64,000 nucleotides of DNA from a virus (taxonomy: Duplodnaviria > Caudoviricetes), in the IMG/VR virus record IMGVR_UViG_3300029288_007102, positions 1 through 64,000 of that record; one strand, 5' to 3'. Position numbers and translations under genes: made by a program. Positions 2,904 through 34,671 of the stretch are shown here, one piece after another. A model generated the notes under the pieces. It searched no databases and had not been told where the DNA came from. It saw only the letters and a program-made list of their open reading frames with translations. Numbering within the stretch: the first letter of the stretch is position 1; the number at the start of each line of letters is the position of its first letter.

Positions 2904-3095
2904 ATGAAGATGACGAAGGAAGCAAAGATTTGGGTGGAGCAAGAGAAGCTCCGGCACAAGAGTTGTCTTAACAATCTTAAAAGGTATGCCCAGCAGATAG
3001 AGCTCATAGAAGAAACAATGGAGCTTGAGAGACAGCAGATGGCATTAATTATACAGGGTATAGAGAAATATAAAACTGAATGGGACAAAGCTTAA
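2904..3095 (+). CDS. Hypothetical coiled-coil protein
   Basis: GGAGG RBS. Confidence 0.6.
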   Translation: MKMTKEAKIWVEQEKLRHKSCLNNLKRYAQQIELIEETMELERQQMALIIQGIEKYKTEWDKA

Positions 3096-3119: not shown

Positions 3120-3491
3120 ATGTGGAACTGGAATTGGAAGAAGGAAAGAGCCGAACTGAATATGCATATAGAGTGTCTGGTAGAGAAAGGTAAAGCGGAC
3201 TTGCAGGCGATTGTCAACCTGGAGAAGCAGCTTGAAGAGGCCAGGCAGATAGAGGACTTTGAATACAAGGAAGGCCGCCCAACCTTGGTGATCAAGTTAG
3301 GGGATAAGGAAGCTAAGTGGATCCCCAGCCAAAAGCACTTTGATAAGGTAAGCAGGTTTGCAAAGAAATCCGGGCTGGACAAGAAGTTCAACATTCTCCT
3401 GTTTCACTATGGGATAGAGTTCATGGTGCCGGGAGATCCAGACTTTGAGAAGACCATAAAGATCTTGAAGGTTCTGGAGAAGAAGAAGTAG
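3120..3491 (+). CDS. Hypothetical protein with W-leader-like N-terminus (MWNWNWKKERA)
   Basis: Start adjusted to ATG after GGGG RBS. Confidence 0.65.
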   Translation: MWNWNWKKERAELNMHIECLVEKGKADLQAIVNLEKQLEEARQIEDFEYKEGRPTLVIKLGDKEAKWIPSQKHFDKVSRFAKKSGLDKKFNILLFHYGIEFMVPGDPDFEKTIKILKVLEKKK

Positions 3492-3500
3492 GGAGGGGTT

Positions 3501-3686
3501 ATGTCTTTGTTAACGATTGTTTTAGTAATAGTGGTAGTTGGGATTTTGCTCTGGCTAGCCAATAGTTATCTGCCGATGGCTGCGAGCATTAAGAAGCTCT
3601 TGAATATTGTGGTGGTTGTGGTGATGGTCATTTGGTTGTTAAAGGTATTTGGTCTATGGAATTATATTGACAAAGTACACATCTAG
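3501..3686 (+). CDS. Two-TM small membrane protein (Thivi_2564-like)
   Basis: LLWLANSYLPMAASIKKLLNIVVVVVMVIWLLKVFG pattern. Confidence 0.7.
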   Translation: MSLLTIVLVIVVVGILLWLANSYLPMAASIKKLLNIVVVVVMVIWLLKVFGLWNYIDKVHI

Positions 3687-3695
3687 AGGTGAAGA

Positions 3696-3892: not shown

Positions 3893-4174
3893 ATGTGGGG
3901 ATATTATACAGTACCGCATGGTGATCTAGTAAAGTCTGGCCTAGTGTGCCCGGTGTGCCATATGGAGTTGTTGGAATTAGATAAGTTGCTTTCACCTCCA
4001 TTGAAATTTGTAAGGTGTGAAACGATCCAGATTGCCGGAAGGGTTATTGGTTGTGGCTGGGAGATGGATTGGCAGAAGCGGAAAGATCCACATGCCCGGG
4101 TGACACAGGAAGAGATAGATCAATACTTTAAGGAGAATGTGAATGAACGAACTAGAAAAGACGAAGGTGTATGA
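3893..4174 (+). CDS. Hypothetical Zn-finger protein
   Basis: CPVC...C...GCGW. Confidence 0.55.
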   Translation: MWGYYTVPHGDLVKSGLVCPVCHMELLELDKLLSPPLKFVRCETIQIAGRVIGCGWEMDWQKRKDPHARVTQEEIDQYFKENVNERTRKDEGV

Positions 4175-4487
4175 GGAATGCAGAGATAGTGCGAATGGGT
4201 TGCTTAAATTATCTGTAGCGGTGCCAGGGCTTTCAAATTTAGAGTCAACAGTATTTAGGTGCTACGTTACGGATTACCTGGCGAAGGAGAAGGGGTTAAA
4301 GCTTATAACAAAGATCCCAGGCATTCCTGGTTTACCTATTTACGAGGACACAAAAGGAGCTTTAAGTAAAGTATCTTATGAAGAGTTTAAACTATTGATA
4401 GATAAATTCAAAAAGAAACTTCCTTTAAAAGAAGTGAAAGAAGGAGAAGTGATTCATATCACCTATTCTGAAGGAGCAACAGAATGA
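4143..4487 (+). CDS. Hypothetical protein
   Basis: AGGAG RBS, overlaps neighbours. Confidence 0.6.
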   Translation: MNELEKTKVYEECRDSANGLLKLSVAVPGLSNLESTVFRCYVTDYLAKEKGLKLITKIPGIPGLPIYEDTKGALSKVSYEEFKLLIDKFKKKLPLKEVKEGEVIHITYSEGATE

Positions 4488-5035
4488 ACTGGGAACGCAG
4501 GGCTGATGAAGGAAAACGCAGGACCAAAGACAAAATAGAGAAGACTGAGACTAAAGAAGTTAACAGTAAGTTTATGACTATGCGTCATATAGAAACAGTA
4601 AGGAATGGTTTGACTGCGGTAGTTAAAGAACTTTTAGATAGGGCGATAGATCATGACCAGACCAAGCTAGAGGAACCTGAGGTTGGATATTATGACCAGG
4701 CCACTCCTAAGCTTAGGGGGATAACATATGGATCGCCGGAATATAAAGCGATAATGAAAGAGATCAAGCCAGCCATAGATCATCACCAGGGAAACAACAG
4801 GCATCACCCGGAGTACTTTAAGAATGGTATAAAGGAAATGAACCTGGTAGACCTGATCGAGATGATCGTGGACTGGAAGGCCGCCTCAATGCGGCATGGC
4901 GATGGGGATATAATGAAGAGCATTAAGATGAACAAGGAGCGGTTTGGTTATTCGGACGAACTGGAGCAGATCTTCTTGAATACGGTCAAGTGGTTGGAGA
5001 CGACCAAGTTTAAGAATAAGGCAGAGGAGTCTTAG
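4484..5035 (+). CDS. DUF5662-like HD-type protein with MNWERRA leader
   Basis: HIETV...HDQTKL...HHQGNNRHHPEYF...MNLVDLIEMIVDW motif series. Confidence 0.75.
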   Translation: MNWERRADEGKRRTKDKIEKTETKEVNSKFMTMRHIETVRNGLTAVVKELLDRAIDHDQTKLEEPEVGYYDQATPKLRGITYGSPEYKAIMKEIKPAIDHHQGNNRHHPEYFKNGIKEMNLVDLIEMIVDWKAASMRHGDGDIMKSIKMNKERFGYSDELEQIFLNTVKWLETTKFKNKAEES

Positions 5036-5248
5036 GTGAATTGGAACAAAGGATTGTCTATGGAAAGATTTGAAGAGCTCCGGCAGGTTGCTAAAGAGGT
5101 AGCGAGGAAGCTGACAGGTAGGCATGAGGCTGAGGAGCTGGTTAAGGGTATAGAGAAAGCTCAGACCTTGATGGGTATAAAGCGGACATTTGAAGCCCGG
5201 GGATTTAAGACTGAGTTTGAAGATATGATGATAGAGTTCTTTAAATAG
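5036..5248 (+). CDS. W-leader small protein (MNWNKG)
   Basis: GTG start, GAGGAG RBS. Confidence 0.7.
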   Translation: MNWNKGLSMERFEELRQVAKEVARKLTGRHEAEELVKGIEKAQTLMGIKRTFEARGFKTEFEDMMIEFFK

Positions 5249-5256
5249 GAGATTAG

Positions 5257-5436
5257 ATGAAAAAGGAAATATATACCCAAGCCGAATGGAAGAAGATTGA
5301 AAAGTTGGCCGGGCAGAAAAGTGTTAAGTTCACGGACAAGCAAGCCAGGGTTTTCTTGCGAGAGATAGGAAACCTGAGGTTTGAGATCAAAGACCTGGAA
5401 GAAGAGATAGAGAGTATGGCTGGGGTGGATAAATAA
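5257..5436 (+). CDS. Small hypothetical protein (not in ORF track)
   Basis: AGGAG RBS; MKKEIYTQAEWKKIEKLA... Confidence 0.6.
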   Translation: MKKEIYTQAEWKKIEKLAGQKSVKFTDKQARVFLREIGNLRFEIKDLEEEIESMAGVDK

Positions 5437-5448
5437 TTAGGGGGCAAT

Positions 5449-6189
5449 ATGAACTGGGTAAAGGCTTCTGATGCAGAAGAGTTTCATAAGTTTCGCCAAT
5501 GGATTTATGATAGTTTTCCTTGGGTTAGTAAAAATGAAGCTTTGGCTGAGGCTATATGGCGAGCCCACAATAACAGGGAGATTGATGAGGCTCTCGTAAA
5601 GAATGCTCCAGATGAGAATGTTTCTGTTATGGATATGTTAAGGGGTTATAAAAATTGGTTAGGTGGTAAGGAAGCTAGTAGTGGAGGGGACAATATGAAC
5701 TGGGTAAAGGAAGCTGGAGATAAGGGGTTTGAGGAGCAGGTCCAACGCTTGGCCGAGGAAGGCTGGAAGTATTATGAGTCTCTGCCTACGGGAGTTTCCC
5801 CTGATGCTGACGACATTGCTAATTATGTAATGGATATGTTGATGGAAGATTTACCTGCATTTAAAACCGTTAAAGAGTATGATGATTTCTTTGATCGAAT
5901 ATATACCATAGTAACTGGCGGGAAAGACCTTGAAGAGAAAGAGGCTGCGGCAGGCGGGAAGAAAGGTGCCTGGTGTCCTAAGTGTGGGGAGCCTCTACAG
6001 GAAGAGACTGACGAAGACTTGAAGAAAGAATATCCATATGTTTGTTTAAATTGTGATGAAAACTTTTATGGGATCGAGACATTAGAAGATCCGGAGAAAG
6101 CCGAATACTTAAGGGGGAAAATGGAAGAGTGGAATTCTCTTAGTCCGGAAGAGAAAGATAAGAGAAGTAAAGAGTTCTTAAATCTTTAG
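5449..6189 (+). CDS. W-leader fusion protein (MNWVKAS; second leader MNWVKEA at 5695; C-terminal Zn ribbon)
   Basis: Internal GGAGGGG RBS + ATG at 5695; CPKC...CLNC. Confidence 0.8.
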   Translation: MNWVKASDAEEFHKFRQWIYDSFPWVSKNEALAEAIWRAHNNREIDEALVKNAPDENVSVMDMLRGYKNWLGGKEASSGGDNMNWVKEAGDKGFEEQVQRLAEEGWKYYESLPTGVSPDADDIANYVMDMLMEDLPAFKTVKEYDDFFDRIYTIVTGGKDLEEKEAAAGGKKGAWCPKCGEPLQEETDEDLKKEYPYVCLNCDENFYGIETLEDPEKAEYLRGKMEEWNSLSPEEKDKRSKEFLNL

Positions 6190-6199
6190 GGGGATATAT

Positions 6200-6424
6200 A
6201 TGAATTGGGTGAAGAAAGCTGATATTCCAAGGAAGAAATATAAGGTGGTAGTCAATGTCCAATTGGCTTATGTGGTAGAGGCCCCTGATGAGGCAATAGC
6301 CAAACAGACAGTAGAGAATGTAGAGCTGCCAAAGTATTATGTGGAAGACAGCCTCCAGTTTGAAGAGATCGTTCCAGCGACACCTGAAGAAGTGAATTTA
6401 TATTCTGTGGAAGAGTTTATATAG
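6200..6424 (+). CDS. W-leader small protein (MNWVKKA), VEA-x-x-E-x-x-A module
   Basis: Leader plus VVEAPDEAIAK. Confidence 0.75.
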   Translation: MNWVKKADIPRKKYKVVVNVQLAYVVEAPDEAIAKQTVENVELPKYYVEDSLQFEEIVPATPEEVNLYSVEEFI

Positions 6425-6433
6425 GAGGATTAA

Positions 6434-6745
6434 ATGGGTTGGGTAAAGAAGGCTGATGGGGGAAGCAATGCTGACATTAAAGATAATAAATATGTAGGCC
6501 GGGCCCCTGAGGGGTATGTGGTTGTAGCCTACGCCGATGAGATTGAGCAGAAGTTTATCGGCGGGGAAGAGTTGGCTGATACCGCCGATAAGGTAAGTCG
6601 TTCTGATTATGAGGACTGGGATGTTGTCAATGACATGGAGCCGAACATTGCGGTAGTGAAAGAATCTGATATGGCAGCCATAGAAGAGATGTATGAGAAG
6701 ATCAAAGAGCTTATTAATAAATCTGATGTTCAACCTGCGGACTAA
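6434..6745 (+). CDS. W-leader small protein (MGWVKKA)
   Basis: GGAGG RBS and leader. Confidence 0.75.
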   Translation: MGWVKKADGGSNADIKDNKYVGRAPEGYVVVAYADEIEQKFIGGEELADTADKVSRSDYEDWDVVNDMEPNIAVVKESDMAAIEEMYEKIKELINKSDVQPAD

Positions 6746-6754
6746 GGAGATTAT

Positions 6755-6952
6755 ATGAGTTGGACTAAAAAGGAAGCTGGAATAAAGGAAGCCCAATTGG
6801 CCGCCTTGGCATCGAGGATGCTTGGGGCTTTATATCAGGCTCTGCCTGTGCTTGGCGATCTGGTGCGGGAAGGTAATGACTGGGACGAATTAAATGAAGC
6901 CTATGAAGCGGTCAAAGGTGTGATCGCTGAGGCGGAGGGATCGATAAAATGA
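6755..6952 (+). CDS. W-leader helical hairpin protein, paralog 1 (MSWTKKEA)
   Basis: LY...L..L...AIA.AE pattern shared with next two ORFs. Confidence 0.75.
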   Translation: MSWTKKEAGIKEAQLAALASRMLGALYQALPVLGDLVREGNDWDELNEAYEAVKGVIAEAEGSIK

Positions 6953-7155
6953 ACTGGACAAAGACCGCTTTGCGTCCTGGAGAAGTAATGTCTGATGAGT
7001 TAAAAAAGGTAGCCCTTGTAGGAGAGTTATATACAGGTTGTGTCTATGCATTAAATGAGCTTGAGAATCCACACTCAAATAAAGAGAACCGGAAAGAAAC
7101 TATTGAATATTTAAAGGGTGCTATAGCTGACGCTAAAGCACAGGGGGTAGAATAG
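6949..7155 (+). CDS. W-leader helical hairpin protein, paralog 2 (MNWTKTA)
   Basis: LYTGCVYALNEL...AIADAKA. Confidence 0.75.
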   Translation: MNWTKTALRPGEVMSDELKKVALVGELYTGCVYALNELENPHSNKENRKETIEYLKGAIADAKAQGVE

Positions 7156-7364
7156 TGAACTGGATAAAGACGGCTATGGTACCATCTAAAGAGATTGATA
7201 CGCTTGTGGATGTTGCTACAGATTTATATAATGCTAGCGTTAGTGCCTTGAATGAGCTTAAAGGGGAATACCCCGGCCAACACCAGTCCTCAGATCACAA
7301 GGCTCTTACTATCCAAGGATTAGAGCAGGCTATCGCTAAGGCAGAAGAGGCATTCCACCAATGA
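7155..7364 (+). CDS. W-leader helical hairpin protein, paralog 3 (MNWIKTA)
   Basis: LYNASVSALNEL...AIAKAEE. Confidence 0.75.
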   Translation: MNWIKTAMVPSKEIDTLVDVATDLYNASVSALNELKGEYPGQHQSSDHKALTIQGLEQAIAKAEEAFHQ

Positions 7365-7660
7365 ACTGGACAAAGGCTAACCTTTCAACCACACCAATAG
7401 ACCTGGGCAAGATAGATCCGGCTAATGCGGATAAGGAGATGCTCAGGGTCTCTATTATCTCTGAGTTGGATGCTATCAACCTTTATGAACAGTTCGCTGA
7501 TATGACTGATGACCCAGAGATCAAGAAGGTTATGTTGTCGGTAGCCAAAGAAGAGAAGACCCATGTGTCGGAATTCAAGACTTTATTAAACAAATTAGAT
7601 CCGGAGCAAGTACAAGAAGACGCAGCCGGGAAGAAAGAAGTAGGGGGGGAACCTAAATGA
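7361..7660 (+). CDS. Encapsulin-cargo-type ferritin-like protein (Flp/EncFtn family) with MNWTKA leader
   Basis: LRVSIISELDAINLYEQ...VAKEEKTHVSEF..LL..LDPEQ; di-iron E and ExxH ligands. Confidence 0.85.
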   Translation: MNWTKANLSTTPIDLGKIDPANADKEMLRVSIISELDAINLYEQFADMTDDPEIKKVMLSVAKEEKTHVSEFKTLLNKLDPEQVQEDAAGKKEVGGEPK

Positions 7661-7887
7661 GCTGGATCAAGAAGGCGAAGGATTCTAATAAGAAAGAATA
7701 CCAGATGCCGTTTGTGTTTTATGGGAATGTGTTGGTTGAGGCAGAAGATGAAAGTGAGGCTCATGAGTTGGCTTCGGCAAATATAGATAAGATCTTCAAG
7801 TTAGCTCAGGATGCAGCTAAAGACCTTGACGGGACACTGAATGATTATGAAAGACAAGAGTTGGTAGACACCAGCACAGGGAAGTAG
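7657..7887 (+). CDS. W-leader small protein (MSWIKKA)
   Basis: Leader plus VEAEDESEAHELA. Confidence 0.75.
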   Translation: MSWIKKAKDSNKKEYQMPFVFYGNVLVEAEDESEAHELASANIDKIFKLAQDAAKDLDGTLNDYERQELVDTSTGK

Positions 7888-7893
7888 GGGTAT

Positions 7894-8061
7894 ATGACCT
7901 GGATAAAGAAGGCAGAGGAAGAAGGCGACCTAGGCTGGTACACAATAGATCTTCTAGGGTTGGATTCCCTAAATTTCTTTTTAATGAAAGACTACTCAGG
8001 CGAGACGGTAAAGATAGTTGTGGTAAGAGAAAAGAAGAAGGAATCAAATGAGACCACGTAA
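7894..8061 (+). CDS. W-leader small protein (MTWIKKA, 55 aa, not in ORF track)
   Basis: AGGGG RBS, ATG at 7894. Confidence 0.7.
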   Translation: MTWIKKAEEEGDLGWYTIDLLGLDSLNFFLMKDYSGETVKIVVVREKKKESNETT

Positions 8062-8422
8062 AGAATTCCAGGAAGTCGCATTTATTAATTGGACACACAA
8101 TAGATCTCCGGAAGGCAAGATTCTCTGGGGACCAGACAATCTCCCGGTACACTGGTGGGAGGCTCAAGTAGGCAGCTTTAATGGGATCTTGGTAATGAGG
8201 CAGAATCCGGAGAAGACCACTTACAATATAATCTATAAAGACAATTCCACTGACAGGTATTGCAACGAACCGCATTACGATAAAGCTTTGGTCACGGCCA
8301 TAGAGATGATTGAACGGAGAATGATTGAGTTGGGTGTAAAGTATAATGTGGAAGACGCACACGACCTTTGGTGGGATAGTAGGAATAAATTAAATGATGA
8401 AGTCAACAGGAGGGTAAGATGA
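8048..8422 (+). CDS. Hypothetical protein
   Basis: Packed ORF. Confidence 0.6.
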   Translation: MRPRKEFQEVAFINWTHNRSPEGKILWGPDNLPVHWWEAQVGSFNGILVMRQNPEKTTYNIIYKDNSTDRYCNEPHYDKALVTAIEMIERRMIELGVKYNVEDAHDLWWDSRNKLNDEVNRRVR

Positions 8423-8640
8423 AGTTGACGATAAACATTAGCAAAGAGAATATACAAAATATCCAAAGGATGTTAAAAGTTAATGGATATGAACCGCTTG
8501 ATCAATCAGCTCTACAAGAGATTTTAGAGATAAAGGCGGAAGAAATAATGGAGTTTCATTTTGATCATGAAGGGTTGATAGAGTTTTTTACTGAACTAGT
8601 TGATGCAGGAGAATTAGATAAGATTGGGGAGGAGAAATAA
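8419..8640 (+). CDS. Hypothetical protein, paralog of next ORF
   Basis: MKLTINISKE..I..M....GYEP. Confidence 0.7.
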   Translation: MKLTINISKENIQNIQRMLKVNGYEPLDQSALQEILEIKAEEIMEFHFDHEGLIEFFTELVDAGELDKIGEEK

Positions 8641-8877
8641 ATGGGCATGCAACTATCGATAAATGTTTCATCGGAGGCGGTCGCAGCGATCAAAGAAATG
8701 ATCAGGGAACAGGGATACGAACCCCCAAAAGAATCGGATCTCCGGGATGCTTTAGAAACTGACCTGGAAGGAAACTTTGATTACGAGATGCAGTTTGAGA
8801 AGGATGCTATCTTTACTTTTGTTGAATGGTTGATTAACAATTGGGAGTTGAAGAAGATTGAGAAGGGGGCAAAATAA
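8641..8877 (+). CDS. Hypothetical protein, paralog of previous ORF
   Basis: MQLSINVSSE..I..M....GYEP. Confidence 0.7.
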   Translation: MGMQLSINVSSEAVAAIKEMIREQGYEPPKESDLRDALETDLEGNFDYEMQFEKDAIFTFVEWLINNWELKKIEKGAK

Positions 8878-8878
8878 T

Positions 8879-9112
8879 ATGGCTTTAGGTGTATGGAAAA
8901 CTGAGTATACAAAACTTATGAGCTGTAGCGGTATGACGGCGGATTGGTTTAGCGACAGGTTAAATGATATGCATACCTTTTTTGTAGGCGATGAGAATGA
9001 CCGACAACTAGCCCTTAAAGAGGCTGATGCGATTAAGGATCAAGAGACTAAGGAAGAGGTTAGGGAGATCTTACAGAAAATGGAATTAGAGGTAGATTAC
9101 AGTTTCTTCTAG
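8879..9112 (+). CDS. Hypothetical protein
   Basis: ATG after GGGGG RBS. Confidence 0.6.
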   Translation: MALGVWKTEYTKLMSCSGMTADWFSDRLNDMHTFFVGDENDRQLALKEADAIKDQETKEEVREILQKMELEVDYSFF

Positions 9113-9121
9113 GGAGACGGG

Positions 9122-9337
9122 ATGCGGTTGGAATATAAGTTTGGTAAATGGGAATATGAGATCATTAAGAATGAGGGTTCCGGCCTTCAGGGGTATGGTT
9201 ATCGCTTGGGGGTATATCAAAACGATAAGAAGGTCTATGAGGGTGGCTCTTATGTGAGCGAGGCTGCGGCAATGAGTAAGGCAATAGATGTGATCCTGGA
9301 GGGAGAATTCGGGATAGATATGTCTTCTGATGAGTAA
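9122..9337 (+). CDS. Hypothetical protein
   Basis: GGGAG RBS. Confidence 0.6.
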   Translation: MRLEYKFGKWEYEIIKNEGSGLQGYGYRLGVYQNDKKVYEGGSYVSEAAAMSKAIDVILEGEFGIDMSSDE

Positions 9338-9416
9338 GCCGACAAGGTTCGCACATTGGAAGTGGTTGCGGGTAGATCCTAAGTGGCAGCAGATTAGGAG
9401 AGCGGAGGAGAAACAT

Positions 9417-9650
9417 ATGGGTTGGGTGAAGGAGGCGGCAAAGGAGCAAGAGGTTGTTGACATTGCCGTAATCTATGAAGTCTCGGTTGAGAAGTTCAAT
9501 AATTTTAACTGCGGTACCAATTGCCAATATCTGAGTGGCGGTAACGGTTCTTACTCTTGCACTTTGTTTGAGAAGCTCTTGGAGAATAGTCCTACTGAGA
9601 TCAAGAGAACTTCTGAATGTTTCAATGCTGAAAATCGGTGGAGGAAATAA
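9417..9650 (+). CDS. W-leader Cys-rich protein (MGWVKEA)
   Basis: GGAGG RBS before ATG 9417 inside track ORF 9330-9650; C..C....C...C. Confidence 0.7.
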   Translation: MGWVKEAAKEQEVVDIAVIYEVSVEKFNNFNCGTNCQYLSGGNGSYSCTLFEKLLENSPTEIKRTSECFNAENRWRK

Positions 9651-9877
9651 TGCGTTGGTTAAAGGCTGATAATATTAAGGCGGCTGAGGAACCTGTAAAC
9701 TTTGGAGACCTGAAGAATGGTGAGAAGTTCAATGCTACCTATGTAGGAGAGCGTCAAGAGGCTGTACTGGAAAAAGTGAATGATCATACTGGGGTATATG
9801 TTGAACCCTCTAAAGAAGGGATGCTCGGCAAGAGGCTTTTGGTGTATCCGGATTCTAAAGTATATAGGGTGGAATAA
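9650..9877 (+). CDS. W-leader small beta-barrel protein (MRWLKA)
   Basis: TAATG coupling; FGDLKNGEKF SH3/KOW-like start. Confidence 0.7.
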   Translation: MRWLKADNIKAAEEPVNFGDLKNGEKFNATYVGERQEAVLEKVNDHTGVYVEPSKEGMLGKRLLVYPDSKVYRVE

Positions 9878-9878
9878 T

Positions 9879-10025
9879 ATGGGAAAGAAGAAAAGGTTGA
9901 CTCTCTAGGACAAGGCAGTGCTAGCCTTGAAGGCTGCGGTCAGAGGGGTAGTCAGGCAGCACAAGAAGTCGGGCCGCCCTTTAATAATCTGGGAGAATGG
10001 GAAGGTAGTTTACAAGAAGGTATAG
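9879..10025 (+). CDS. Small basic protein (48 aa, not in ORF track)
   Basis: ALKAAVRGVVRQHKKSGRPLIIWENGKVV. Confidence 0.6.
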
Positions 10026-10034
10026 GGGGCACCT

Positions 10035-10493
10035 GTGAAAGAAATAGGGTGGATAAATCCTCAGGGCGAATTTCTTCCTTTACGTGAACCTCACATAGAT
10101 TGGTTGGGGGACAATATTGATTTTGTGAGGAAGGTAATTGGAGTGGGTCTGGAGAATGAATGTTATAAGCAGGGCGATGTCTTGATGTTGGCGATGATCA
10201 AGAGTGGTTGGATCCGGGTCTTTGCTGCTTACAATGGTGGGTTTGGTTTTGGCGTACATTCGGAAGAACAATTTGCTGCTGTTGAAGATCACATAAAAGG
10301 AAGTCCTCCGGGCGGCAAGGTTTGGGTTAATATGCCAAATCGCCTTGAAGATATTTTTACTACTGTAGGGGAGATAGAGAAGTGTGGGCTTAGATTCCTT
10401 TTGGAAGAGGGAAAGAATTCTCAACCTTTTGAACACAGGTTTGAGTGGAGGGAAGATGGGCTGGCTTCGGCAGGCAACACAAGAGATCTTTAA
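10035..10493 (+). CDS. Hypothetical phage protein
   Basis: GWINPQG...H...GWIRV motif typical of small phage domains. Confidence 0.65.
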   Translation: MKEIGWINPQGEFLPLREPHIDWLGDNIDFVRKVIGVGLENECYKQGDVLMLAMIKSGWIRVFAAYNGGFGFGVHSEEQFAAVEDHIKGSPPGGKVWVNMPNRLEDIFTTVGEIEKCGLRFLLEEGKNSQPFEHRFEWREDGLASAGNTRDL

Positions 10494-10845
10494 ATTAGAG
10501 ACTGAGACAAATCTGGATGCTTTGATCGGCGACAAGCCCTACGAAGGTGGCGGTGAGTATGCCGACTTGAAAGATTATATGGCAAGAGTGAAGGGGTTGG
10601 TAGGAGAGATTGTGTATATGACCCCGGATGAATACTTAGAGAAGATACCTTATCAAGAACAGACAAAGAGTAGCATTGAATATATGAAGGCAAAGGTAGA
10701 TCGGGGAGAGAAACTTCCAATGCCCTGGCTGGACTACTCTGGCGGTAGGTTGAGCCAAGAGGGAAGAAACAGAGCGTACCTGGCCAAGGAATTGGGGATC
10801 CCCGAGATCCCAGTGTTGGTAGTAAACAAACCTAAGGGGAGATAA
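10456..10845 (+). CDS. ParB/Srx-like domain protein with MGWLRQA leader
   Basis: MTPDEYL...PWLDY...QEGRNRAYLAKELGIPEIPV; GGAGGG RBS before ATG 10456. Confidence 0.7.
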   Translation: MGWLRQATQEIFKLETETNLDALIGDKPYEGGGEYADLKDYMARVKGLVGEIVYMTPDEYLEKIPYQEQTKSSIEYMKAKVDRGEKLPMPWLDYSGGRLSQEGRNRAYLAKELGIPEIPVLVVNKPKGR

Positions 10846-10846
10846 T

Positions 10847-11131
10847 ATGAATTGGTTGCGGGAAGCTGAGAAACCTAAGTATACACAAGTGAAGACCTTT
10901 GAGGAAGTGAAGAAATTGTCCAACCGGGATGGCGGGGCTGATTTTATTATTCAGTTAAACTTTGGCGGGAAGGCGAGTTATCATTTAGCTTGGGATGGTG
11001 AGTTGATGTATGTCCTCAGCCTGGTGGATGACTCAGAGCAGGAGTTGACCCCGGAAGAATTTATGGATCCGGGGCAGACCAACTTCAAAGAGGCAATGGA
11101 AAAGGGTGCCTTGTACCACGAACAATTCTAA
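10847..11131 (+). CDS. W-leader small protein (MNWLREA)
   Basis: GGGAG RBS and leader. Confidence 0.75.
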   Translation: MNWLREAEKPKYTQVKTFEEVKKLSNRDGGADFIIQLNFGGKASYHLAWDGELMYVLSLVDDSEQELTPEEFMDPGQTNFKEAMEKGALYHEQF

Positions 11132-11141
11132 GGGGGAATAG

Positions 11142-11300
11142 ATGACTTGGATTAAGGAAGCTAAGGTTGGTAAGGCGGAAGACGATAAGATAATCAAGCT
11201 TCTGGATATGCTGGATGGTTATGGGATTGTCTTTACGGATGATGATATGGTAAGGAACAGGTTGCAAGAGATTGATTTGGAGTGGCTCTTTGGTAAATAG
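11142..11300 (+). CDS. W-leader small protein (MTWIKEA, 52 aa, not in ORF track)
   Basis: AGGGGG RBS and leader. Confidence 0.7.
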   Translation: MTWIKEAKVGKAEDDKIIKLLDMLDGYGIVFTDDDMVRNRLQEIDLEWLFGK

Positions 11301-11325: not shown

Positions 11326-11808
11326 ATGAAAAGATTGATGCTTTTAGTTCTAAGTTTGGTGGTGTTCTGCTCTGTGTTCTTAGGGTGTAATACGGCACAA
11401 GCTGAGTTCAGGCTGTCAGCTGAGCCAGTGCCAGGGTTGACCTTAGGGTTGTCCTCAGTTAACCTGGGCAACTACTACGACTTTAAGAGTTCACGAGTCT
11501 ACGGTGGGTTTGAGGCCTCGGTGGTTAATATAAAGAATCTTCTCTCTCTTGACATCGGGGGATTGAGCAATGGATCAAGGCAGGCACCTCTGGTAGCAAT
11601 AGGGGCGAATCTGATAGGGATATGTAATAAGTTTGGTTGGGAATATAAGCTCCCGGGTAATTTACAGCTAGTAGCGTTTTATTCTAGGAACTTCTTTTAT
11701 GAATCTGAATCGGAGGATCCGGCTGATCCGATAATTCAGAAGTGGTTTGTGGGTGTAGGTCTAGTGGTAGTGTTGCCGATTAATACTGCTCCGGCAGCTA
11801 CGCCGTAG
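11326..11808 (+). CDS. Secreted/outer-membrane beta-rich protein
   Basis: Signal peptide MKRLMLLVLSLVVF...AQA; alternating beta strands. Confidence 0.65.
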   Translation: MKRLMLLVLSLVVFCSVFLGCNTAQAEFRLSAEPVPGLTLGLSSVNLGNYYDFKSSRVYGGFEASVVNIKNLLSLDIGGLSNGSRQAPLVAIGANLIGICNKFGWEYKLPGNLQLVAFYSRNFFYESESEDPADPIIQKWFVGVGLVVVLPINTAPAATP

Positions 11809-11812
11809 AATT

Positions 11813-11884
11813 GCCCTTGTAGCTCAGTGGTAGAGCGGCAGTTTTGTAAACTGCGGGTCGGGAGTTCAAATCTCTTCGGGGGCT
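11813..11884 (+). tRNA. tRNA-Thr (UGU)
   Basis: Acceptor GCCCTTG/CGGGGGC, D-arm GCTC-AGTGGTA-GAGC, anticodon stem GCAGT-TT TGT AA-ACTGC, T-loop TTCAAAT; CCA not encoded. Confidence 0.95.
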
Positions 11885-14035: not shown

Positions 14036-14297
14036 GGAGAAAGAACCTGTTGACCTGCTCAGTACGGCATCCAGTGAAACGTTTGGAAAGCCTGTGCCGG
14101 AATTAGATAAACATACTATAGAGTTTTTAGATCAGACTGTTGACAAGGCTATGAGTAAATATTGGAATGAAATAGGAAATCTTTTTGGGATGAAGATCTG
14201 CGTTTCTCCACTTCTGAAAGGCGACCAGTGGTGGGTAGTAGTAAGCCAGGAAGTGTATGATAAAATTAAAGGAGCAAAGGCTGATGGCAAAGGTTAA
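14028..14297 (+). CDS. Hypothetical protein
   Basis: Packed ORF. Confidence 0.55.
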   Translation: MDKEKEPVDLLSTASSETFGKPVPELDKHTIEFLDQTVDKAMSKYWNEIGNLFGMKICVSPLLKGDQWWVVVSQEVYDKIKGAKADGKG

Positions 14298-20542: not shown

Positions 20543-20752
20543 ATGAATTGGCACAGAAAGGCACAGACTCCGGCTCCGGCCTCTGGTGGATTTGGTGGAC
20601 TGGATGAGGTGACCAAGTACAACATTAACCAGAAGGGGCTTGGGTATTACTGCCCAGATTGCATGAAAGATGTCCCGCCCAATGTGAGGTGTCCTGATTG
20701 CGGCAAGGTGCTTAAGAAAAACAAATGGATTAATAGGAGACGAGATGGCTGA
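20543..20752 (+). CDS. W-leader Zn-ribbon protein (MNWHRKAQ)
   Basis: CPDC...CPDC. Confidence 0.75.
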   Translation: MNWHRKAQTPAPASGGFGGLDEVTKYNINQKGLGYYCPDCMKDVPPNVRCPDCGKVLKKNKWINRRRDG

Positions 20753-22034: not shown

Positions 22035-22325
22035 ATGGAGTGGACAAAGTTGGCCAGGAAGAGTGAGAAGATAAGTAGAGAGAAAGCTGATTTCTATCTA
22101 CACCATTGGGACGAGTTCCTCCGCAAGTATGGGAAGGATGCCGACCTTATGTGTAAAGAGTTCCAGTTTGTTGAGATCAACGATGAAGAAGAAGAGAAAG
22201 ATACCCTCAATCGTGGAGATAAGATGTGGGTGGCTGTATACCCGGGGGACTTGGAGAGCCACACTGAGCCGGATGGTAGCTTGGATCCTGAGTGGAAGAC
22301 TTTTGAAGTTTGGTATGGGAGGTAG
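22035..22325 (+). CDS. W-leader small protein (MEWTKLA)
   Basis: AGGAG RBS and leader. Confidence 0.7.
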   Translation: MEWTKLARKSEKISREKADFYLHHWDEFLRKYGKDADLMCKEFQFVEINDEEEEKDTLNRGDKMWVAVYPGDLESHTEPDGSLDPEWKTFEVWYGR

Positions 22326-23110: not shown

Positions 23111-23482
23111 ATGGATTGGTTGAAACCTGAATTGAAAACGAAGAAGGAAAAGGATCCAGTCAAAGAAATAGTTACAAAGTATATTAAGGGGAGAGATAGA
23201 TTGTCGGCAGAGAAGAATTTAGAATACAGGACTCTGAGAGATCGGCTTTTGAGTTTGCATGGTGGTAGGGTAAGTTTTAAAAAGGAACAAGGGAGATTGA
23301 TTAAGCTTTTTATGGATGCGGTCTCTAAGATTAAGGAAGCAATACTCCGGGGGCATTCAAAAGATAAGGCTTTGGGGTATGTGCAAGAAACCTTAAAGTT
23401 TGAAGAGCATATGACAAGAAGGTTAGTAGAACTAATGAATCAAAACTTGGACTTTTTCCAACAAAGAGGGATGTGGAGCTAA
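23111..23482 (+). CDS. Hypothetical protein (MDWLK start)
   Basis: GGAGG RBS. Confidence 0.65.
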   Translation: MDWLKPELKTKKEKDPVKEIVTKYIKGRDRLSAEKNLEYRTLRDRLLSLHGGRVSFKKEQGRLIKLFMDAVSKIKEAILRGHSKDKALGYVQETLKFEEHMTRRLVELMNQNLDFFQQRGMWS

Positions 23483-28635: not shown

Positions 28636-30297
28636 ATGGCAGAGAATAGAGATGCGAAGTTTTTAAGGAAAGCATATAAGGCTTTAGAGGAAACGGAACC
28701 GCTTATATATCGGGCCAGTTTGCATAACGATAAAGATCCTGATAAAAAATCAGATCTCGTTAAGCAGGCTCAGATGATGGTTTGGGAGGGCGGATCCTCT
28801 CAGGCACCTAGAGTTCCTTTGCTTTATATGGATCCGCTTATGGATCCTATTCTCTTTCTCTATCCCCGGGGAGAATCTAGGGAATCGGTAAAACAGATTA
28901 ATGTCAGATTAAGACATTATTATGAAACCCATAGATTAGTGGGGAATATAATCGATTTACATAGCGAATTTCCTTTATCTGACTTCACCCTAAGAACTAA
29001 AGATCCTGCTATTACAAAATATTACAACGACTTCAAGGATGATATAGGGTTATTGCAGGATATGATTTGTTGGTTGAAAGACTACTGGCTATTAGGTGAA
29101 GCGATTGTTTATGGCAATTGGGATGTAATCAATCGTAAATGGAGCTATTTTAATCAATATCCGCCTGAATCCATTGAGATCCGTTCTACTTATAGTGGTG
29201 GTGGGGCAATTTATCTGCTCTACCCAGATGATGATCCGGAATTAAAACGTATTTGTATGAGTTCTGATCCAATTGATGAGGCAATCCGGAAACAGATGCC
29301 AGGAGAGTTCGTGGAAGCGGTCAAGGCTGGCAAGCCAATGGTTTTGGATAACTCCCGGGTAATGCATTTTGCAAGAAAGCCGAATAAATATGCCAGGCGT
29401 GGTGTATCTATTGTTCGCCGGGCGATTAAAGATTTGATGTATGAAGACAAATTGAGGAATTTGCAACTGACGTTTGTGGATCGTCATATGTTCCCAATTA
29501 AAGTGTTTAAATTGGGAGATAAAGGTTTGGGCTGGATACCGTCAGCTAAACATTTTACCAAATTCCAGTCTCTGTTAGGGCAAGCGGCTAACGATCCTGA
29601 TTTTAATATTATTTATCACTTTGGGTTAGAAATTGATTATGTAGGAACTAAAGATAAGATTGCAAATTTAATCCCTGAATTTGAGTTTGTGGAAAAGGCA
29701 ATTCTTTTAGCCTTATTTGCAAACGATACAGTTGTTCATGGAGATATGACAACTTATGCTGGGCAAGCTATTTCTATGAGGGTGTTACTTAATAGGTATT
29801 TGACAGTGCGTACTCAGTTGGAGAAAGATGTTCGAAATAAGATCTTCTTGCCAATGGCCAGGGAGATGGACTTTAAAGACAAAGAGGGTCGGTATATTCT
29901 TCCTGAGTTTATGTGGGAAAAGACGAATCTGTTATCCAATACAACGCAGCAGGACTTTGTTTTATCTATGCGGGATAAAGGGGATTTGCCGATGGCGTTG
30001 GTGTGTGACATCTTTGGTTGGGACAAAAAGATTATACAGGAACAGATTAAAGAAGAGATGGGTACGGTATTTGATCCTGTTTGGAGAGAAATCTACAAGT
30101 CTATGTCTGAAGATGAATTCTATCAAGAGCAGATCTTTAAAGGCAAGAAGTATGATGAATGGCAGAGTAAAGAAAAGGAAGAGAAGGCCGAGAAGCTGCA
30201 GACGACTACCCCCCCAACAGAAGGTAAAGGGGTAGAGAAAGAAAAGAAGACTGAATCTGAGGAGCCTCCGTTCTTGGGTGGTAAGGAGATAACCTGA
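28636..30297 (+). CDS. Portal protein
   Basis: IIDLHSEFPLS, LLGEAIVY, VMHFARK...RGVSIVRRA; size and position before protease and capsid. Confidence 0.88.
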   Translation: MAENRDAKFLRKAYKALEETEPLIYRASLHNDKDPDKKSDLVKQAQMMVWEGGSSQAPRVPLLYMDPLMDPILFLYPRGESRESVKQINVRLRHYYETHRLVGNIIDLHSEFPLSDFTLRTKDPAITKYYNDFKDDIGLLQDMICWLKDYWLLGEAIVYGNWDVINRKWSYFNQYPPESIEIRSTYSGGGAIYLLYPDDDPELKRICMSSDPIDEAIRKQMPGEFVEAVKAGKPMVLDNSRVMHFARKPNKYARRGVSIVRRAIKDLMYEDKLRNLQLTFVDRHMFPIKVFKLGDKGLGWIPSAKHFTKFQSLLGQAANDPDFNIIYHFGLEIDYVGTKDKIANLIPEFEFVEKAILLALFANDTVVHGDMTTYAGQAISMRVLLNRYLTVRTQLEKDVRNKIFLPMAREMDFKDKEGRYILPEFMWEKTNLLSNTTQQDFVLSMRDKGDLPMALVCDIFGWDKKIIQEQIKEEMGTVFDPVWREIYKSMSEDEFYQEQIFKGKKYDEWQSKEKEEKAEKLQTTTPPTEGKGVEKEKKTESEEPPFLGGKEIT

Positions 30298-30539
30298 TGA
30301 GAAAGTATCTCTCTTCCCGTACACGCTATACAGAATCTAACCAAGAGATTGAGATGTTTTCTGGGAAGATAAAAAGTTGCATAGTCGGACTTAAAAGGGT
30401 TGCTGAAGAGCTTGATCTGGATCTTATGACCATTAGCCATTTAGGTCGGGTAGAAGAAGCCTTAGAATCCTTTACCCGGGAAGCTAGTGGGGAAATTGAG
30501 CAGGCAGAAGAGGAGAGGAAGAAAAATGAAATGGCTTAA
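30297..30539 (+). CDS. Hypothetical protein
   Basis: TGATG coupling to portal. Confidence 0.55.
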   Translation: MRKYLSSRTRYTESNQEIEMFSGKIKSCIVGLKRVAEELDLDLMTISHLGRVEEALESFTREASGEIEQAEEERKKNEMA

Positions 30540-30816
30540 AGCGGAGGAAGCCTATAAAACTGATGAGGAAATCGCTCGTCAATTTGAGGGATATAAGATT
30601 AGAAATATAGAGTTCAATCCTAGTGGAGAGAGTGGAACGCTTGAGATAGAATTCCCGAATGCTGGGGAGTCGGTTGCAGGCGGCCAGGATTATGTGTTGG
30701 AACATTTTATCATCTACAACACAGGACAGATTGCTTTTGATAATTGGTACCCGGAACAGACATATGACGAATTTGTGAATTATATTAGGAACAAACAGAA
30801 TGAAAAAAAGAGGTGA
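30526..30816 (+). CDS. W-leader small protein (MKWLKAEEA)
   Basis: GAGG RBS before ATG 30526. Confidence 0.7.
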   Translation: MKWLKAEEAYKTDEEIARQFEGYKIRNIEFNPSGESGTLEIEFPNAGESVAGGQDYVLEHFIIYNTGQIAFDNWYPEQTYDEFVNYIRNKQNEKKR

Positions 30817-31016
30817 GAGATATGAGTTTCTTCAAAACCGGAGCAGTTGAAAAAATTATTGGTATATTTAAATCTGGCAAGAAAGATGAGGTTGCTGCAA
30901 ACAAACCTATTATTTGCAGTAAGTGTGGCAGGTTGATAGATCTCAAGACTAAGGTTGCTAGTATAAAATGTTTGTGTGGGAACGAGATTGTTCTGCCAAA
31001 GGAGACTAAAAACTAA
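30813..31016 (+). CDS. Small Zn-ribbon protein
   Basis: CSKC...CLCG. Confidence 0.6.
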   Translation: MRDMSFFKTGAVEKIIGIFKSGKKDEVAANKPIICSKCGRLIDLKTKVASIKCLCGNEIVLPKETKN

Positions 31017-31453: not shown

Positions 31454-31747
31454 ATGTGCGATAAATGTCTACAACGCCAAGCCAAAGCCCCGGTAGATCA
31501 TAGTTATTTATCTTTGGTGGAGCTCCAGAAAAAGAAATATACTGATGTCCGGTTTGTGGCCAGAGATAGGGCTTGCCCGATATGTAGAAGAGTACATAAT
31601 TTAAAAGTGAAGATTGACAAGTTGCTTTCGGAAACAGATTATGAGGCTTCAATTTATACCTTAGCTCATCCAGGTTGTCAGTGTTTTTTGGAAGTAAGCG
31701 GAAGAGGGTTGCGGACAGTTAAATTTGATTATAGAGGGTTGCGATAG
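31454..31747 (+). CDS. Minimal Mu gpF/SPP1 gp7-like head morphogenesis protein
   Basis: RACPIC...HPGCQC motif; between portal and protease. Confidence 0.65.
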   Translation: MCDKCLQRQAKAPVDHSYLSLVELQKKKYTDVRFVARDRACPICRRVHNLKVKIDKLLSETDYEASIYTLAHPGCQCFLEVSGRGLRTVKFDYRGLR

Positions 31748-31756
31748 GAGGAGTAA

Positions 31757-34033
31757 ATGTTTATCAGATTAGGGACGTTGGAGAAGGTAAGTGTTCTCCA
31801 GGGGTTTAAGCGAGAGGCGAGTTTGGCATCAGAATGGAGAGACATTGTTGCAGGAACGTCTTATGTGCAACAAAATGATGTCTTTGATTATGATACTGAA
31901 AATTTCTTGTATTTTAGGTGCCGGGCAGTAAGCCCTGGCCCTAATGGGAATGGCGACTTCTTTCCGCCTCCAGAAATAAAAAAAGCTTACAAGACTTTTA
32001 TAGGTAAACCATTTTGTATTGAGCATGATTCAGATAGTCCTGATAAAGCACGAGGGGTTATTTTAGATGCCAGTCTACATGAAGATCCTGATGATTTTTA
32101 TGTAGAATGCTTGGTGGCGGTAGATAAGGTGCGGTACCCAGACATTGCTCGGAATTTGGAGTTAGGGATTCTTAATTCTGTTTCGATGGGCTGTGTGTGT
32201 TCGGAAGCTGAATGTTCTATTTGTCATAATGTGGCCAGGGACACTGAGCATCTGTGCCCACATATGAATAAAGATGACCTTCGTTATGTGAAAGGTAGAT
32301 CTAATGATGCGTATGAAATTAACCGGGGGATTAGTTATGTTGAGTTGTCAGGCGTAAGGAATCCTGCGTTTAACGATACAAAGATTTTTGAAGTAATGGC
32401 ATCACAATTGAACGACAAACTAAAGAACGAGCTGAAGAGATATGCGAGTTCTAAACGGGAGGGGGCGGAGGAAAATATGGCAGTGGGATCTGAGAGTGTC
32501 AGGGCTAGTCAGAATTCAGGTACTTCAAAGTTACGCAAATTGGTGAATAGTATTTCAGGTATTAAGGAAAAACCTGTACATGGGGATTTCGATTTAGGAG
32601 AAGGGAATATTTTAAGGTCCTTTAGGGCAGCGGATAATAGGATCTTAATGCAACTGTTTAAACAAGGGCAAGCTGAAAATGTGTTTATTGAGCCTATCTA
32701 TGGAGACTTATCGATAGAACAAAAGGCGAAGAAATATAAGGCGGCTCTAAATTTAGGGGGAATAGAAGGTTCTATTAAAACAGAGAAGGAAATCAAGAAG
32801 GAAGTAGCGACAAAAACGAAAGAGACCTGCAAAAAAGCAGAAAAGGAGGAAGTGAATATGTTCAATTTAAGTTATGTAGAAGGTACTTCGCTGGATACCA
32901 GTTATTTCCTGGCTAAAGAGGGGGATAAAGAACATAAGGTAAAAGCTAGTGAAGTTGTTCCAAAAGACATACAAGATTCGATCTTGGCGGGAAAGACTGA
33001 TACCGTCATCTCTCCAGAACAAGCTGTTGAACAGATTGTTAAGGAATGTGGTAGTACCCTGCAAGGGTTCCAGAAGTGGTCCTTGATGGAGAAGGTGAAG
33101 AATATCCGTCGGGCAAAGATGAAAAAGGTAGAGAAGAAAGAAGAGAAAAAGGAAGCGTCTGAAAAGCCAGTGGAAAAAGAAGTTGTCAAGGCGGCAGAAG
33201 ATCGGAAAGCTAAGATTAAGGCTATAATTGAGGCCGCTCGGGCTCGTAGGGCAGCCAAGGTAGCAGAGGCTCCTGTTGTAGAATCTGCCGAAACACCTAA
33301 GGTAGAGCCTGTAGAAAAAGTTGTTGAGGCTCCAGTCCAAGCTTCTGCTCTTACCCCAGAACGGAGAAAAGAGCTTGCTGCTCGGGCACATAAGAGAGCA
33401 ATCATTGCTCGGATGAAATTGAGGAAGAAAGCAAATTACATGAACATAGAAGATTCCTCAATTCGTTCAGAAGAGAAAGAAGAAAAAGGAGATCTCAATC
33501 TTCAGGGCACAGATCAAGTGGCCCAGAACGTTAAAGAGCAGAAGGTCGGTATGACTGGTCCTACTGGAAATGCGGGAGGCAAAGTAAAGGAGTATTACAA
33601 TAAGCTCGGCAGTCCAAGCGGTGGTACCCCGACACCTGGCGACAATTGGGCAATGAAGACTTCGGCTCTTGAGAAAGAGGTTGAAGATTTAAAAAAGAAA
33701 ACCGCTGCTTTAGAAGCAGAGAACACCCTGTTGACCAAGAAAGCGGCAATGAAAGAGAAGGCTGAGATGATTGATCAAATCATTTCTGGCTTGGATTTCG
33801 AGAGTGAAGAAGAGAAGAGTAAGACAATTGAAGAGTTGGCCTCTATGGATGCTGAGAAATTGCAGACCACTTTACAATTGAAGGCAAAGACTGCAAGTAA
33901 AGCTACTCCGATGCCGAAGACTGCCGGATTAGAAGCGGTCAATAATATTCCTCCTGTGTTTGCTGCTCAGGATTCACGCAGCACAGTAGATAAACTGTCG
34001 GATATTATGGAGAACGAAGTTCCGAAGATATAG
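31757..34033 (+). CDS. Prohead (maturation) protease fused to scaffolding domain
   Basis: NGNGDFF, IEHD, SVSMGC, ELSGVRNPA; Zn-finger CSIC..LCPH; long K/E/A-rich helical C-terminus. Confidence 0.85.
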   Translation: MFIRLGTLEKVSVLQGFKREASLASEWRDIVAGTSYVQQNDVFDYDTENFLYFRCRAVSPGPNGNGDFFPPPEIKKAYKTFIGKPFCIEHDSDSPDKARGVILDASLHEDPDDFYVECLVAVDKVRYPDIARNLELGILNSVSMGCVCSEAECSICHNVARDTEHLCPHMNKDDLRYVKGRSNDAYEINRGISYVELSGVRNPAFNDTKIFEVMASQLNDKLKNELKRYASSKREGAEENMAVGSESVRASQNSGTSKLRKLVNSISGIKEKPVHGDFDLGEGNILRSFRAADNRILMQLFKQGQAENVFIEPIYGDLSIEQKAKKYKAALNLGGIEGSIKTEKEIKKEVATKTKETCKKAEKEEVNMFNLSYVEGTSLDTSYFLAKEGDKEHKVKASEVVPKDIQDSILAGKTDTVISPEQAVEQIVKECGSTLQGFQKWSLMEKVKNIRRAKMKKVEKKEEKKEASEKPVEKEVVKAAEDRKAKIKAIIEAARARRAAKVAEAPVVESAETPKVEPVEKVVEAPVQASALTPERRKELAARAHKRAIIARMKLRKKANYMNIEDSSIRSEEKEEKGDLNLQGTDQVAQNVKEQKVGMTGPTGNAGGKVKEYYNKLGSPSGGTPTPGDNWAMKTSALEKEVEDLKKKTAALEAENTLLTKKAAMKEKAEMIDQIISGLDFESEEEKSKTIEELASMDAEKLQTTLQLKAKTASKATPMPKTAGLEAVNNIPPVFAAQDSRSTVDKLSDIMENEVPKI

Positions 34034-34581: not shown

Positions 34582-34671
34582 TAGAAACACCAGCACTAAA
34601 ACATTGAAAACGAATTGAATGATATTTGAATTGACTGAAAAAGACTCAACTTTGAAAAAATGGAGATCACA

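Follow-up and report, generated by a model that had tools for sequence, protein, structure and literature searches.

Here we describe a seven-residue N-terminal tag, M-x-W-[VILT]-[KR]-x-[A/S], which is carried by a large set of small proteins encoded by an uncultured phage. The window, that is, the whole stretch of DNA that was analysed, consists of the first 64 kb (64,000 nucleotides) of the 183,208-bp single-contig virus record IMGVR_UViG_3300029288_007102. The tag is real, it is under protein-level selection, and it has been grafted onto unrelated protein bodies. From the comparison of sequences we somewhat favour the view that it acts as a portable propeptide for prohead targeting, functionally analogous to phage T4's capsid-targeting sequence.

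Starts of the form M-x-W-x-[KR]-x(0-2)-A occur at 17 places between 4484 and 11142, and again at 20543, 22035, 23111 and 30526. A first-pass annotation, made from the letters of the window alone, had listed these 17 starts and four outliers; all of its coordinates hold, and each start is preceded by a Shine-Dalgarno (SD)-like G-rich run 5-12 nt upstream. Across the 21 proteins, the consensus is M1 (21), N2 (10), W3 (21), V, L, T or I at position 4 (18), K or R at position 5 (21), any residue at position 6 and A7 (14). Of the 345 called proteins, 19 fit the regular expression M.W.[KR].{0,2}A; when residues 2-31 of each protein were permuted in 2000 rounds, the matches averaged 0.19 and never exceeded 3, so the motif is enriched over background. 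The third residue is tryptophan in 24 proteins, against about 5.6 predicted from the Trp frequency, and 21 of the 24 are encoded in the first 31 kb. Among SD-preceded starts, 17/91 matched in 0-12 kb versus 1/741 in 64-183 kb, and a copy of hydrophobic-x-K/R-x-Ala lies in the first 12 residues of 22/73 proteins at 0-30 kb versus 6 of about 240 beyond 64 kb. Past 31 kb the sole match to the regular expression is a GTG-initiated open reading frame (ORF) at 159425, which is probably spurious, and a scan of the minus strand of the genome gave 0 matches. None of the large ORFs in 36-64 kb is tagged, in agreement with the earlier remark that neck, fibre and sheath genes lack the leader.

The codons for the tag differ synonymously from gene to gene (AAC/AAT, GTA/GTG, AAG/AAA, GCT/GCG/GCA). 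The protein-level conservation suggested in the first-pass annotation was therefore confirmed over the N, V, K and A codons, and a nucleotide-level signal was rejected because the synonymous positions vary. A Sec or Tat signal was also rejected, the tag being followed by no hydrophobic stretch. An all-against-all BLAST led to the rejection of common descent for the bodies, as it returned a single paralog pair (6949/7155, 40% identity); the earlier statement that the bodies are unrelated apart from one trio thus stands as to their unrelatedness, whereas the trio is reduced to this pair, the protein at 6755 not being detectable as a relative. Searches of PHROG, Pfam and NCBIfam left most tagged bodies unnamed.

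Two bodies that do belong to known families show the graft directly. The protein at 4484-5035 (tag MNWERRA) consists of a 25-aa tag plus charged linker joined to a DUF5662 body (Pfam, 4e-37), and the profile match begins at residue 28; this DUF5662 body is the one that the first-pass annotation had called HD-like. Of the 120 best DUF5662 homologs (median length 159 aa, N-terminus MSESKFKTMRHIETVRN), 119 are without the tag-plus-linker; the exception is a 98%-identical copy. The protein at 7361-7660 (MNWTKAN), previously described as a ferritin, has an EncFtn-like body recognized by the Pfam models EncFtn-like and Rubrerythrin and by PDB matches to 5n5e (7e-20), to 2e0z, the encapsulin-fused domain of P. 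furiosus (1e-18), and to M. xanthus EncC and EncB. Its best NCBIfam match is encapsulin ferritin-like cargo, with EncB_fam at 1e-20, under the cut-off of that family. An M.W start is found in 6/75 homologs of this protein: the five closest copies, all metagenomic, begin with MNW[TLI]K..LSTTPIDL and one distant copy with MSWYK. The archaeal homologs (Pacearchaeota, Lokiarchaeota, Bathyarchaeia) begin with ML(A/S)K-TPIDL, so that in both families cellular homologs lack the leader, as had been predicted. Among characterised proteins, the EncFtn body is nearest to P. furiosus EncFtn and M. xanthus EncB/EncC, all of which belong to the cargo of encapsulin shells with the HK97 fold. A C-terminal encapsulin-targeting peptide is absent from the 7361 protein, and the shell here is the phage capsid. 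The closest cellular homologs of the phage EncFtn are archaeal (including P. furiosus), which may hint at the host or at a gene transfer.

The cargo turns over quickly between related contigs while the tag is kept. One of them, L076, was reached via EncFtn, independently of the capsid protein; it is syntenic with the window and has 10 tagged genes. Its orthologs, at 30-84% identity, retain M-x-W-x-K/R, as illustrated by the 103-aa acidic protein at 6434-6745 (MGWVKKA; MAWVKKV in L076, 77% identity) and the 55-aa protein at 7894-8061 (MTWIKKA; MSWVKKA in L076, 71% identity). The place of the window's tagged DUF5662 gene is taken in L076 (3671-4354) by a His_Phos_1 enzyme tagged MKWLKAE, and the window genes 6755-7155 are missing. 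The window ORF at 5449-6189 encodes a two-module protein of 246 aa with MNWVKAS at residue 1 and MNWVKEA at residue 83 (5695, with its own SD sequence); the second module is a stand-alone gene at L076 4896-5429, while the 246-aa two-tag ORF is kept at 2201-2941 of the 98% relative L074. A possible variant with Met in place of Trp, MKMTKEA, starts a 63-aa protein at 2904-3095 and has the same N-terminus in L076. The gene at 5036-5248 begins at a GTG codon with a degenerate tag, MNWNKGL, which lacks the Ala; its L074 allele (1779-2000) has the canonical MNWTKEAS. The two alleles encode proteins of 54% identity, and the DNA flanking them on both sides is about 99% identical; the divergence begins directly after the tag codons and its boundaries are sharp. 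Such a hypervariable allele fits either recombinational replacement or diversifying selection. The modular cargo set anticipated in the first-pass annotation is thereby supported: the tag is portable and conserved in the phage clade, and the cargo changes fast among related contigs.

A link to the head comes from the capsid protein and the protease, in which the consensus M-N-W-[VLTI]-K-x-A recurs as hydrophobic-x-K/R-x-Ala at candidate processing sites predicted from sequence. The major capsid protein (34660-35610; PHROG major head protein) has a conserved F-T-K-Q-A|S-S at residues 28-34. An alignment of 20 capsid proteins shows variability and indels over the first ~30 residues, followed by the conserved hydrophobic-x-K/R-x-Ala; Ala32 is at least 90% conserved, and K or R stands two residues earlier in 18/20. 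The AlphaFold model of the capsid protein has residues 25-36 as a disordered, low-confidence linker joining two helices. The gene at 31757-34033 (PHROG head maturation protease) encodes a 758-aa prohead protease with a K/E/A-rich extension of ~530 aa that is coiled-coil-like in appearance. His90 and Ser143 are invariant in the alignment. The model of the protease domain has a pLDDT (predicted local distance difference test score) of 77.7 with residues 1-21 disordered, and its best PDB folds are herpesvirus assemblins and T4 gp21 (5jbl), with weak Foldseek E values of 1e-3 to 6e-3. The protease protein contains 6 motif copies versus 2.2 expected, including F-K-R-E-A|S at 17, L-K-R-Y-A|S at 226, where the protease domain ends, and, 35 residues short of the C-terminus, M-P-K-T-A|G at 719. 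A K-x-A-[SGN] followed by a hydrophobic tail is found near the C-terminus in 7/23 protease homologs. The peptides MNWVKKADIP, GGFTKQASSEEV and NELKRYASSKRE would be candidate substrates of the protease.

The protease itself begins with M-F-x-K/R-x-G/A (M-F-x-R in the window); across 21 sequences the conservation of Phe2 is at least 90%. Beside it, at 30822-31016, a small gene begins with MSFFKTG, and such an F-type start, MSF[FK]K[TV]G, is conserved next to the proteases of relatives. The N-terminus M-(S)-F-x-K/R-x-G/A, which the protease and the adjoining gene have in common (as also at L040 6978 and 7198 and L038 6611), resembles the W tag in an F-type form. Copies of the tag also occur inside proteins. 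MNWNKREA is internal in two L042 proteins, and proteins of ~475 aa in three relatives (L043 13783-15210, L046 14254-15696, L047 13986-15419) begin with MQW[ST]K.ADVT and have a ~100-aa repeat containing W-[LM]-K-K-A-[DE]-[AS]-T-P-G, so that the tag-like motif occurs two or three times per protein. These copies, like that at residue 83 of the 5449 ORF, lie at module junctions, where an element for cleavage or recognition is a better explanation than a handle confined to the terminus. The ~475-aa proteins were considered as homologs of window gene 39258 and rejected, identity being 18-21%.

Relatives of the phage were taken from capsid-protein homologs and from 26 IMG/VR loci found by an alignment-based capsid search; a search of IMG/VR with the single capsid-protein sequence had given no match. 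Several of them carry tagged genes within the head module. In L038 and L042, six consecutive tagged genes (MEWLKK, MNWLNRK, MKWLKIE, MKWLDKQ, MNWLNIK, MKWLKIN) lie downstream of the capsid gene, and L040 has four tagged genes between portal and protease. In the window itself, the tagged gene at 30526-30816 (MKWLKA, 96 aa) lies by gene order between portal and protease, where T4 has gp67/gp68. L039 has two tagged genes, one of which, beginning with MNWLRIGA, is homologous by BLAST and alignment to the small Mu F-like head protein of the window (31454-31747; weak Pfam Phage_Mu_F), whose N-terminal segment reads L-Q-R-Q-A. The L038 protein at 14295 (MKWLDKQSS) is homologous to the N-terminus of a 1642-aa protein of the window, which begins with MKSTAS. 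Multi-site K/R-x-A/S cutting of this large protein was considered and rejected, the strict motif not being enriched (6 versus 4.8 expected); one site, at residue 324, coincides with a homology boundary. Whole-record scans of three relatives with the strict pattern gave 5, 1 and 3 matches, on the coding strand only, and reversed-pattern controls gave 0. The tagged set of the window is the largest seen. A degenerate DNA pattern for MNW[VIM]K[KE]A was tried on IMG/VR and set aside, its 37 single-match loci being about the number expected by chance and forming no clusters. Pfam on the large tagged proteins of the relatives returned DUF7249 only.

Two further observations concern the head genes of relatives. 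In the 97% relative L041 the capsid gene is called as two ORFs, 3411-3692 and 3927-4670, which are 234 nt apart. Intein, HNH or NUMOD3-type insertions are present among the head genes of close relatives, and the window is free of them.

We propose the following mechanism. The tag would be a copy of the recognition motif of the assemblin-fold head protease, hydrophobic-x-K/R-x-Ala, and would dock its protein to the protease-scaffold core during prohead assembly. Upon activation of the protease it would be clipped, probably after the small residue, and the mostly acidic, mostly orphan cargo would remain in the head and exit with the DNA at infection. Clipping after Ala, as suggested in the first-pass annotation, is consistent with a protease of assemblin fold and with Ala being the most conserved residue of the putative junctions. 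The prohead routing suggested there gains from the tagged genes within the head modules of relatives and from the match to the capsid and protease junctions; core binding, cleavage and the exact bond, presence in the virion and ejection are steps that we infer. Most tagged proteins have no second site, so that a single cut would leave the body intact. Only tentatively do we entertain a stronger form of the proposal, in which the seven residues would be a complete portable loading signal and a pseudo-substrate of an Ala-cutting, assemblin-type protease-scaffold, at least 21 unrelated proteins would be co-injected, including an encapsulin-type ferroxidase and strain-swapped enzymes, and the tag would join the T4 capsid-targeting sequence, the herpesvirus R/M-site and encapsulin loading.

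In T4, the capsid-targeting sequence is an N-terminal propeptide of 10-20 residues. It secures the uptake of proteins into the prohead core and is taken off by gp21 (PMC5694885, PMC3012670), and the T-even internal proteins are a diverse set with only this sequence in common (PMC3012670, PMC5694885). The concept of cargo with a shared leader is thus not new, as it has already been described for these internal proteins (PMC3012670). The T4 sequence (on IPI, IPII, IPIII and Alt) and the phage tag are both short N-terminal peptides on otherwise unrelated proteins, and the tag, like the T4 sequence, would end in the junction motif of the capsid propeptide. The two proteases share the assemblin/gp21 fold, one tagged gene lies between portal and protease, and cargo loci are polymorphic in both, the turnover seen here resembling that of the polymorphic internal-protein loci of T-even phages (PMC3012670). 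The T4 sequence MKTYQEFIAE, which ends in [LI]-x-E, has no similarity to M-x-W-x-K-x-A, which makes the tag an analogue and not a homolog. The T4 sequence is also longer (10-20 aa versus 7) and has Glu at P1, where Ala or Ser is the candidate here; T4 has ~4-6 copies per genome versus 17-21 here, the cargo here is mostly acidic, and the phage is not T4-like.

Cleavage by herpesvirus assemblins takes place after Ala (PMC4498786). In the pseudorabies virus protein pUL26, the R-site, YLQA-T226, frees the protease, and the M-site removes the last 37 residues (PMC4498786). Both pUL26 and the phage protease have an N-terminal assemblin-fold Ser/His protease and a long charged extension. The R-site would correspond to the candidate Ala site at residue 226-231 of the phage protein, directly after the protease domain, and the M-site to the candidate site ~35 aa before its C-terminus. 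The likeness is at the level of the fold only (Foldseek E ~1e-3), the phage prefers Lys/Arg at P3, and its sites are predicted ones. We know of no herpesvirus that uses a protease site as an N-terminal cargo tag. Encapsulin cargo peptides resemble the tag in that a short terminal peptide sends unrelated cargo into an HK97-fold shell, as would happen here; they differ in being usually C-terminal, uncleaved and of other motifs, and the phage EncFtn has the N-terminal W tag instead. In phage P1, the first 30 residues of DarB suffice for entry into the phage head (PMC9024508); that signal is longer than the tag, is found on a single protein and not family-wide, and has no known link to a protease motif. 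What would be new here is this particular tag, its putative Ala-type junction, the herpesvirus-like layout of the protease-scaffold and the EncFtn cargo.

Several points weigh against a role in prohead targeting. The phage is known from metagenome contigs alone, and the main cluster is found amid early-looking small genes, 5-12 kb upstream of the terminase. Characterised capsid-targeting sequences have 10-20 aa (PMC5694885), so a seven-residue tag is shorter, and the characterised phage proteases of gp21 type all cut after Glu (PMC5694885); the cut bond is moreover uncertain because Glu-containing alternatives adjoin several of the candidate sites. Position 7 is A, S or V in the L076 orthologs, so that Ala7 is not invariant, and one relative has a changed tag Lys (MDWVIAS). 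Matches to a motif of three to four features can be chance. The co-occurrence of tag and head genes is partly built in, because most relatives were found via the capsid protein. Three distant relatives that are nearly complete and have a protease of the same family lack the strict tag, and the W tag therefore marks a sub-clade. Finally, 17/21 tagged proteins are acidic, with isoelectric points of 4.3-5.8, whereas T4 internal proteins are basic.

Some of these points would be accommodated if the tag were a handle for a partner outside the capsid, such as an enzyme modifying Trp3 or Lys5, a chaperone, a timed-degradation system or a localisation factor, and the cargo consisted of early cytoplasmic proteins. 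We consider this unlikely. A cluster among small orphan genes upstream of the terminase is a typical early-gene setting, and acidity is shared with many host-takeover or anti-defence proteins; however, the tested untagged genes in 1.4-16 kb gave no enzyme in Pfam (the sole match was DUF7831), in relatives, head-module genes and a Mu F-like head protein are tagged, conserved junctions in capsid protein and protease match the tag, and the internal copies at module junctions are better explained by a cleavage site. Unlikelier still is that tagged proteins are accessories of the prohead core or scaffold which carry the tag as a protease substrate and are degraded and expelled, like T4 gp67, gp68 and gp22, instead of being delivered. 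Such a fate would suit the gene at 30526 and the L040 genes in the gp67/gp68 position, as well as the F-type tag of the protease itself, and T4 core proteins are indeed cut into small fragments (PMC5694885). It accords less well with several bodies being folded enzymes or domains of cellular families (DUF5662, EncFtn, His_Phos_1), with a cargo set that differs between close relatives, which is unusual for essential assembly parts, and with the lack of any further internal site in most tagged proteins.

That the shared N-terminus has no function, being a relic of duplication or cassette recombination or a translation-initiation context, is very improbable. One paralog pair does exist, the recombination boundary in L074 falls directly after the tag codons, and the second codons are A-rich. 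Against these stand bodies that are unrelated by BLAST, residues that are kept while synonymous codons vary, conservation of the tag at 30-84% body identity and in relatives with other codon usage, cellular homologs that lack it, and internal in-frame copies. Prohead targeting thus remains the reading that we prefer.

The remaining tagged genes, like all genes of the window, are on the plus strand. Following the two-module ORF, they encode an orphan of 74 aa (6200-6424, MNWVKKA), a protein of 65 aa (6755-6952, MSWTKKEA), the paralogs of 68 aa (6949-7155, MNWTKTA) and 69 aa (7155-7364, MNWIKTA, with a GTG start like that at 5036) and, after the EncFtn gene, a protein of 76 aa (7657-7887, MSWIKKA). 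Further downstream lie genes for proteins of 77 aa (9417-9650, MGWVKEA, with the SD sequence GGAGGAG upstream), 75 aa (9650-9877, MRWLKA), 129 aa (10456-10845, MGWLRQA), 94 aa (10847-11131, MNWLREA) and 52 aa (11142-11300, MTWIKEA). The tagged starts at 5695, 9417 and 10456 lie within longer ORFs. Of the ParB/Srx bodies named in the first-pass annotation, a weak lead persists in the possibly ParB_N-like protein at 10456, and the zinc ribbons that it had also named gave profile matches below threshold. The outliers are a basic protein of 69 aa (20543-20752, MNWHRKA), one of 96 aa (22035-22325, MEWTKLA) and one of 123 aa with a partial tag lacking the Ala (23111-23482, MDWLKPE). Within the tagged cluster there are also two adjacent untagged paralogs, 8419-8640 (73 aa) and 8641-8877 (78 aa), which are kept in L076. 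Two elements spanning 11326-11884 close the cluster: a gene whose signal peptide is lipoprotein-like (…FLGC) and, immediately after it, tRNA-Thr(TGT) at 11813-11884.

GC skew is strongly positive across the whole length of the window. A promoter and terminator scan of 1-17 kb gave no signal above shuffles and provides no timing information. The large terminase gene is at 16089, and the portal protein (28636-30297) has its best match among GenBank phages in the portal of Bacillus phage G, at ~28% identity. With an identity of only 28%, the phage is therefore assigned to an uncharacterised jumbo-phage clade; the tagged cluster had no blastn match in GenBank phages.

If the prohead-targeting proposal is true, the packaged and injected proteins of this uncultured jumbo-phage clade would be readable from sequence, and the tagged genes would form a catalogue of candidate host-takeover or anti-defence proteins, mostly orphans, with signs of rapid turnover. 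At seven residues, the tag would be the shortest known capsid-loading signal, with a possible use in loading phage-derived particles, and the EncFtn cargo would directly bridge phage heads and encapsulin compartments. Among phage proteases of the assemblin fold, this one would be the first to show a herpesvirus-like Ala specificity and R/M-site layout, which would bear on the evolution of the maturation machinery common to tailed phages and herpesviruses.

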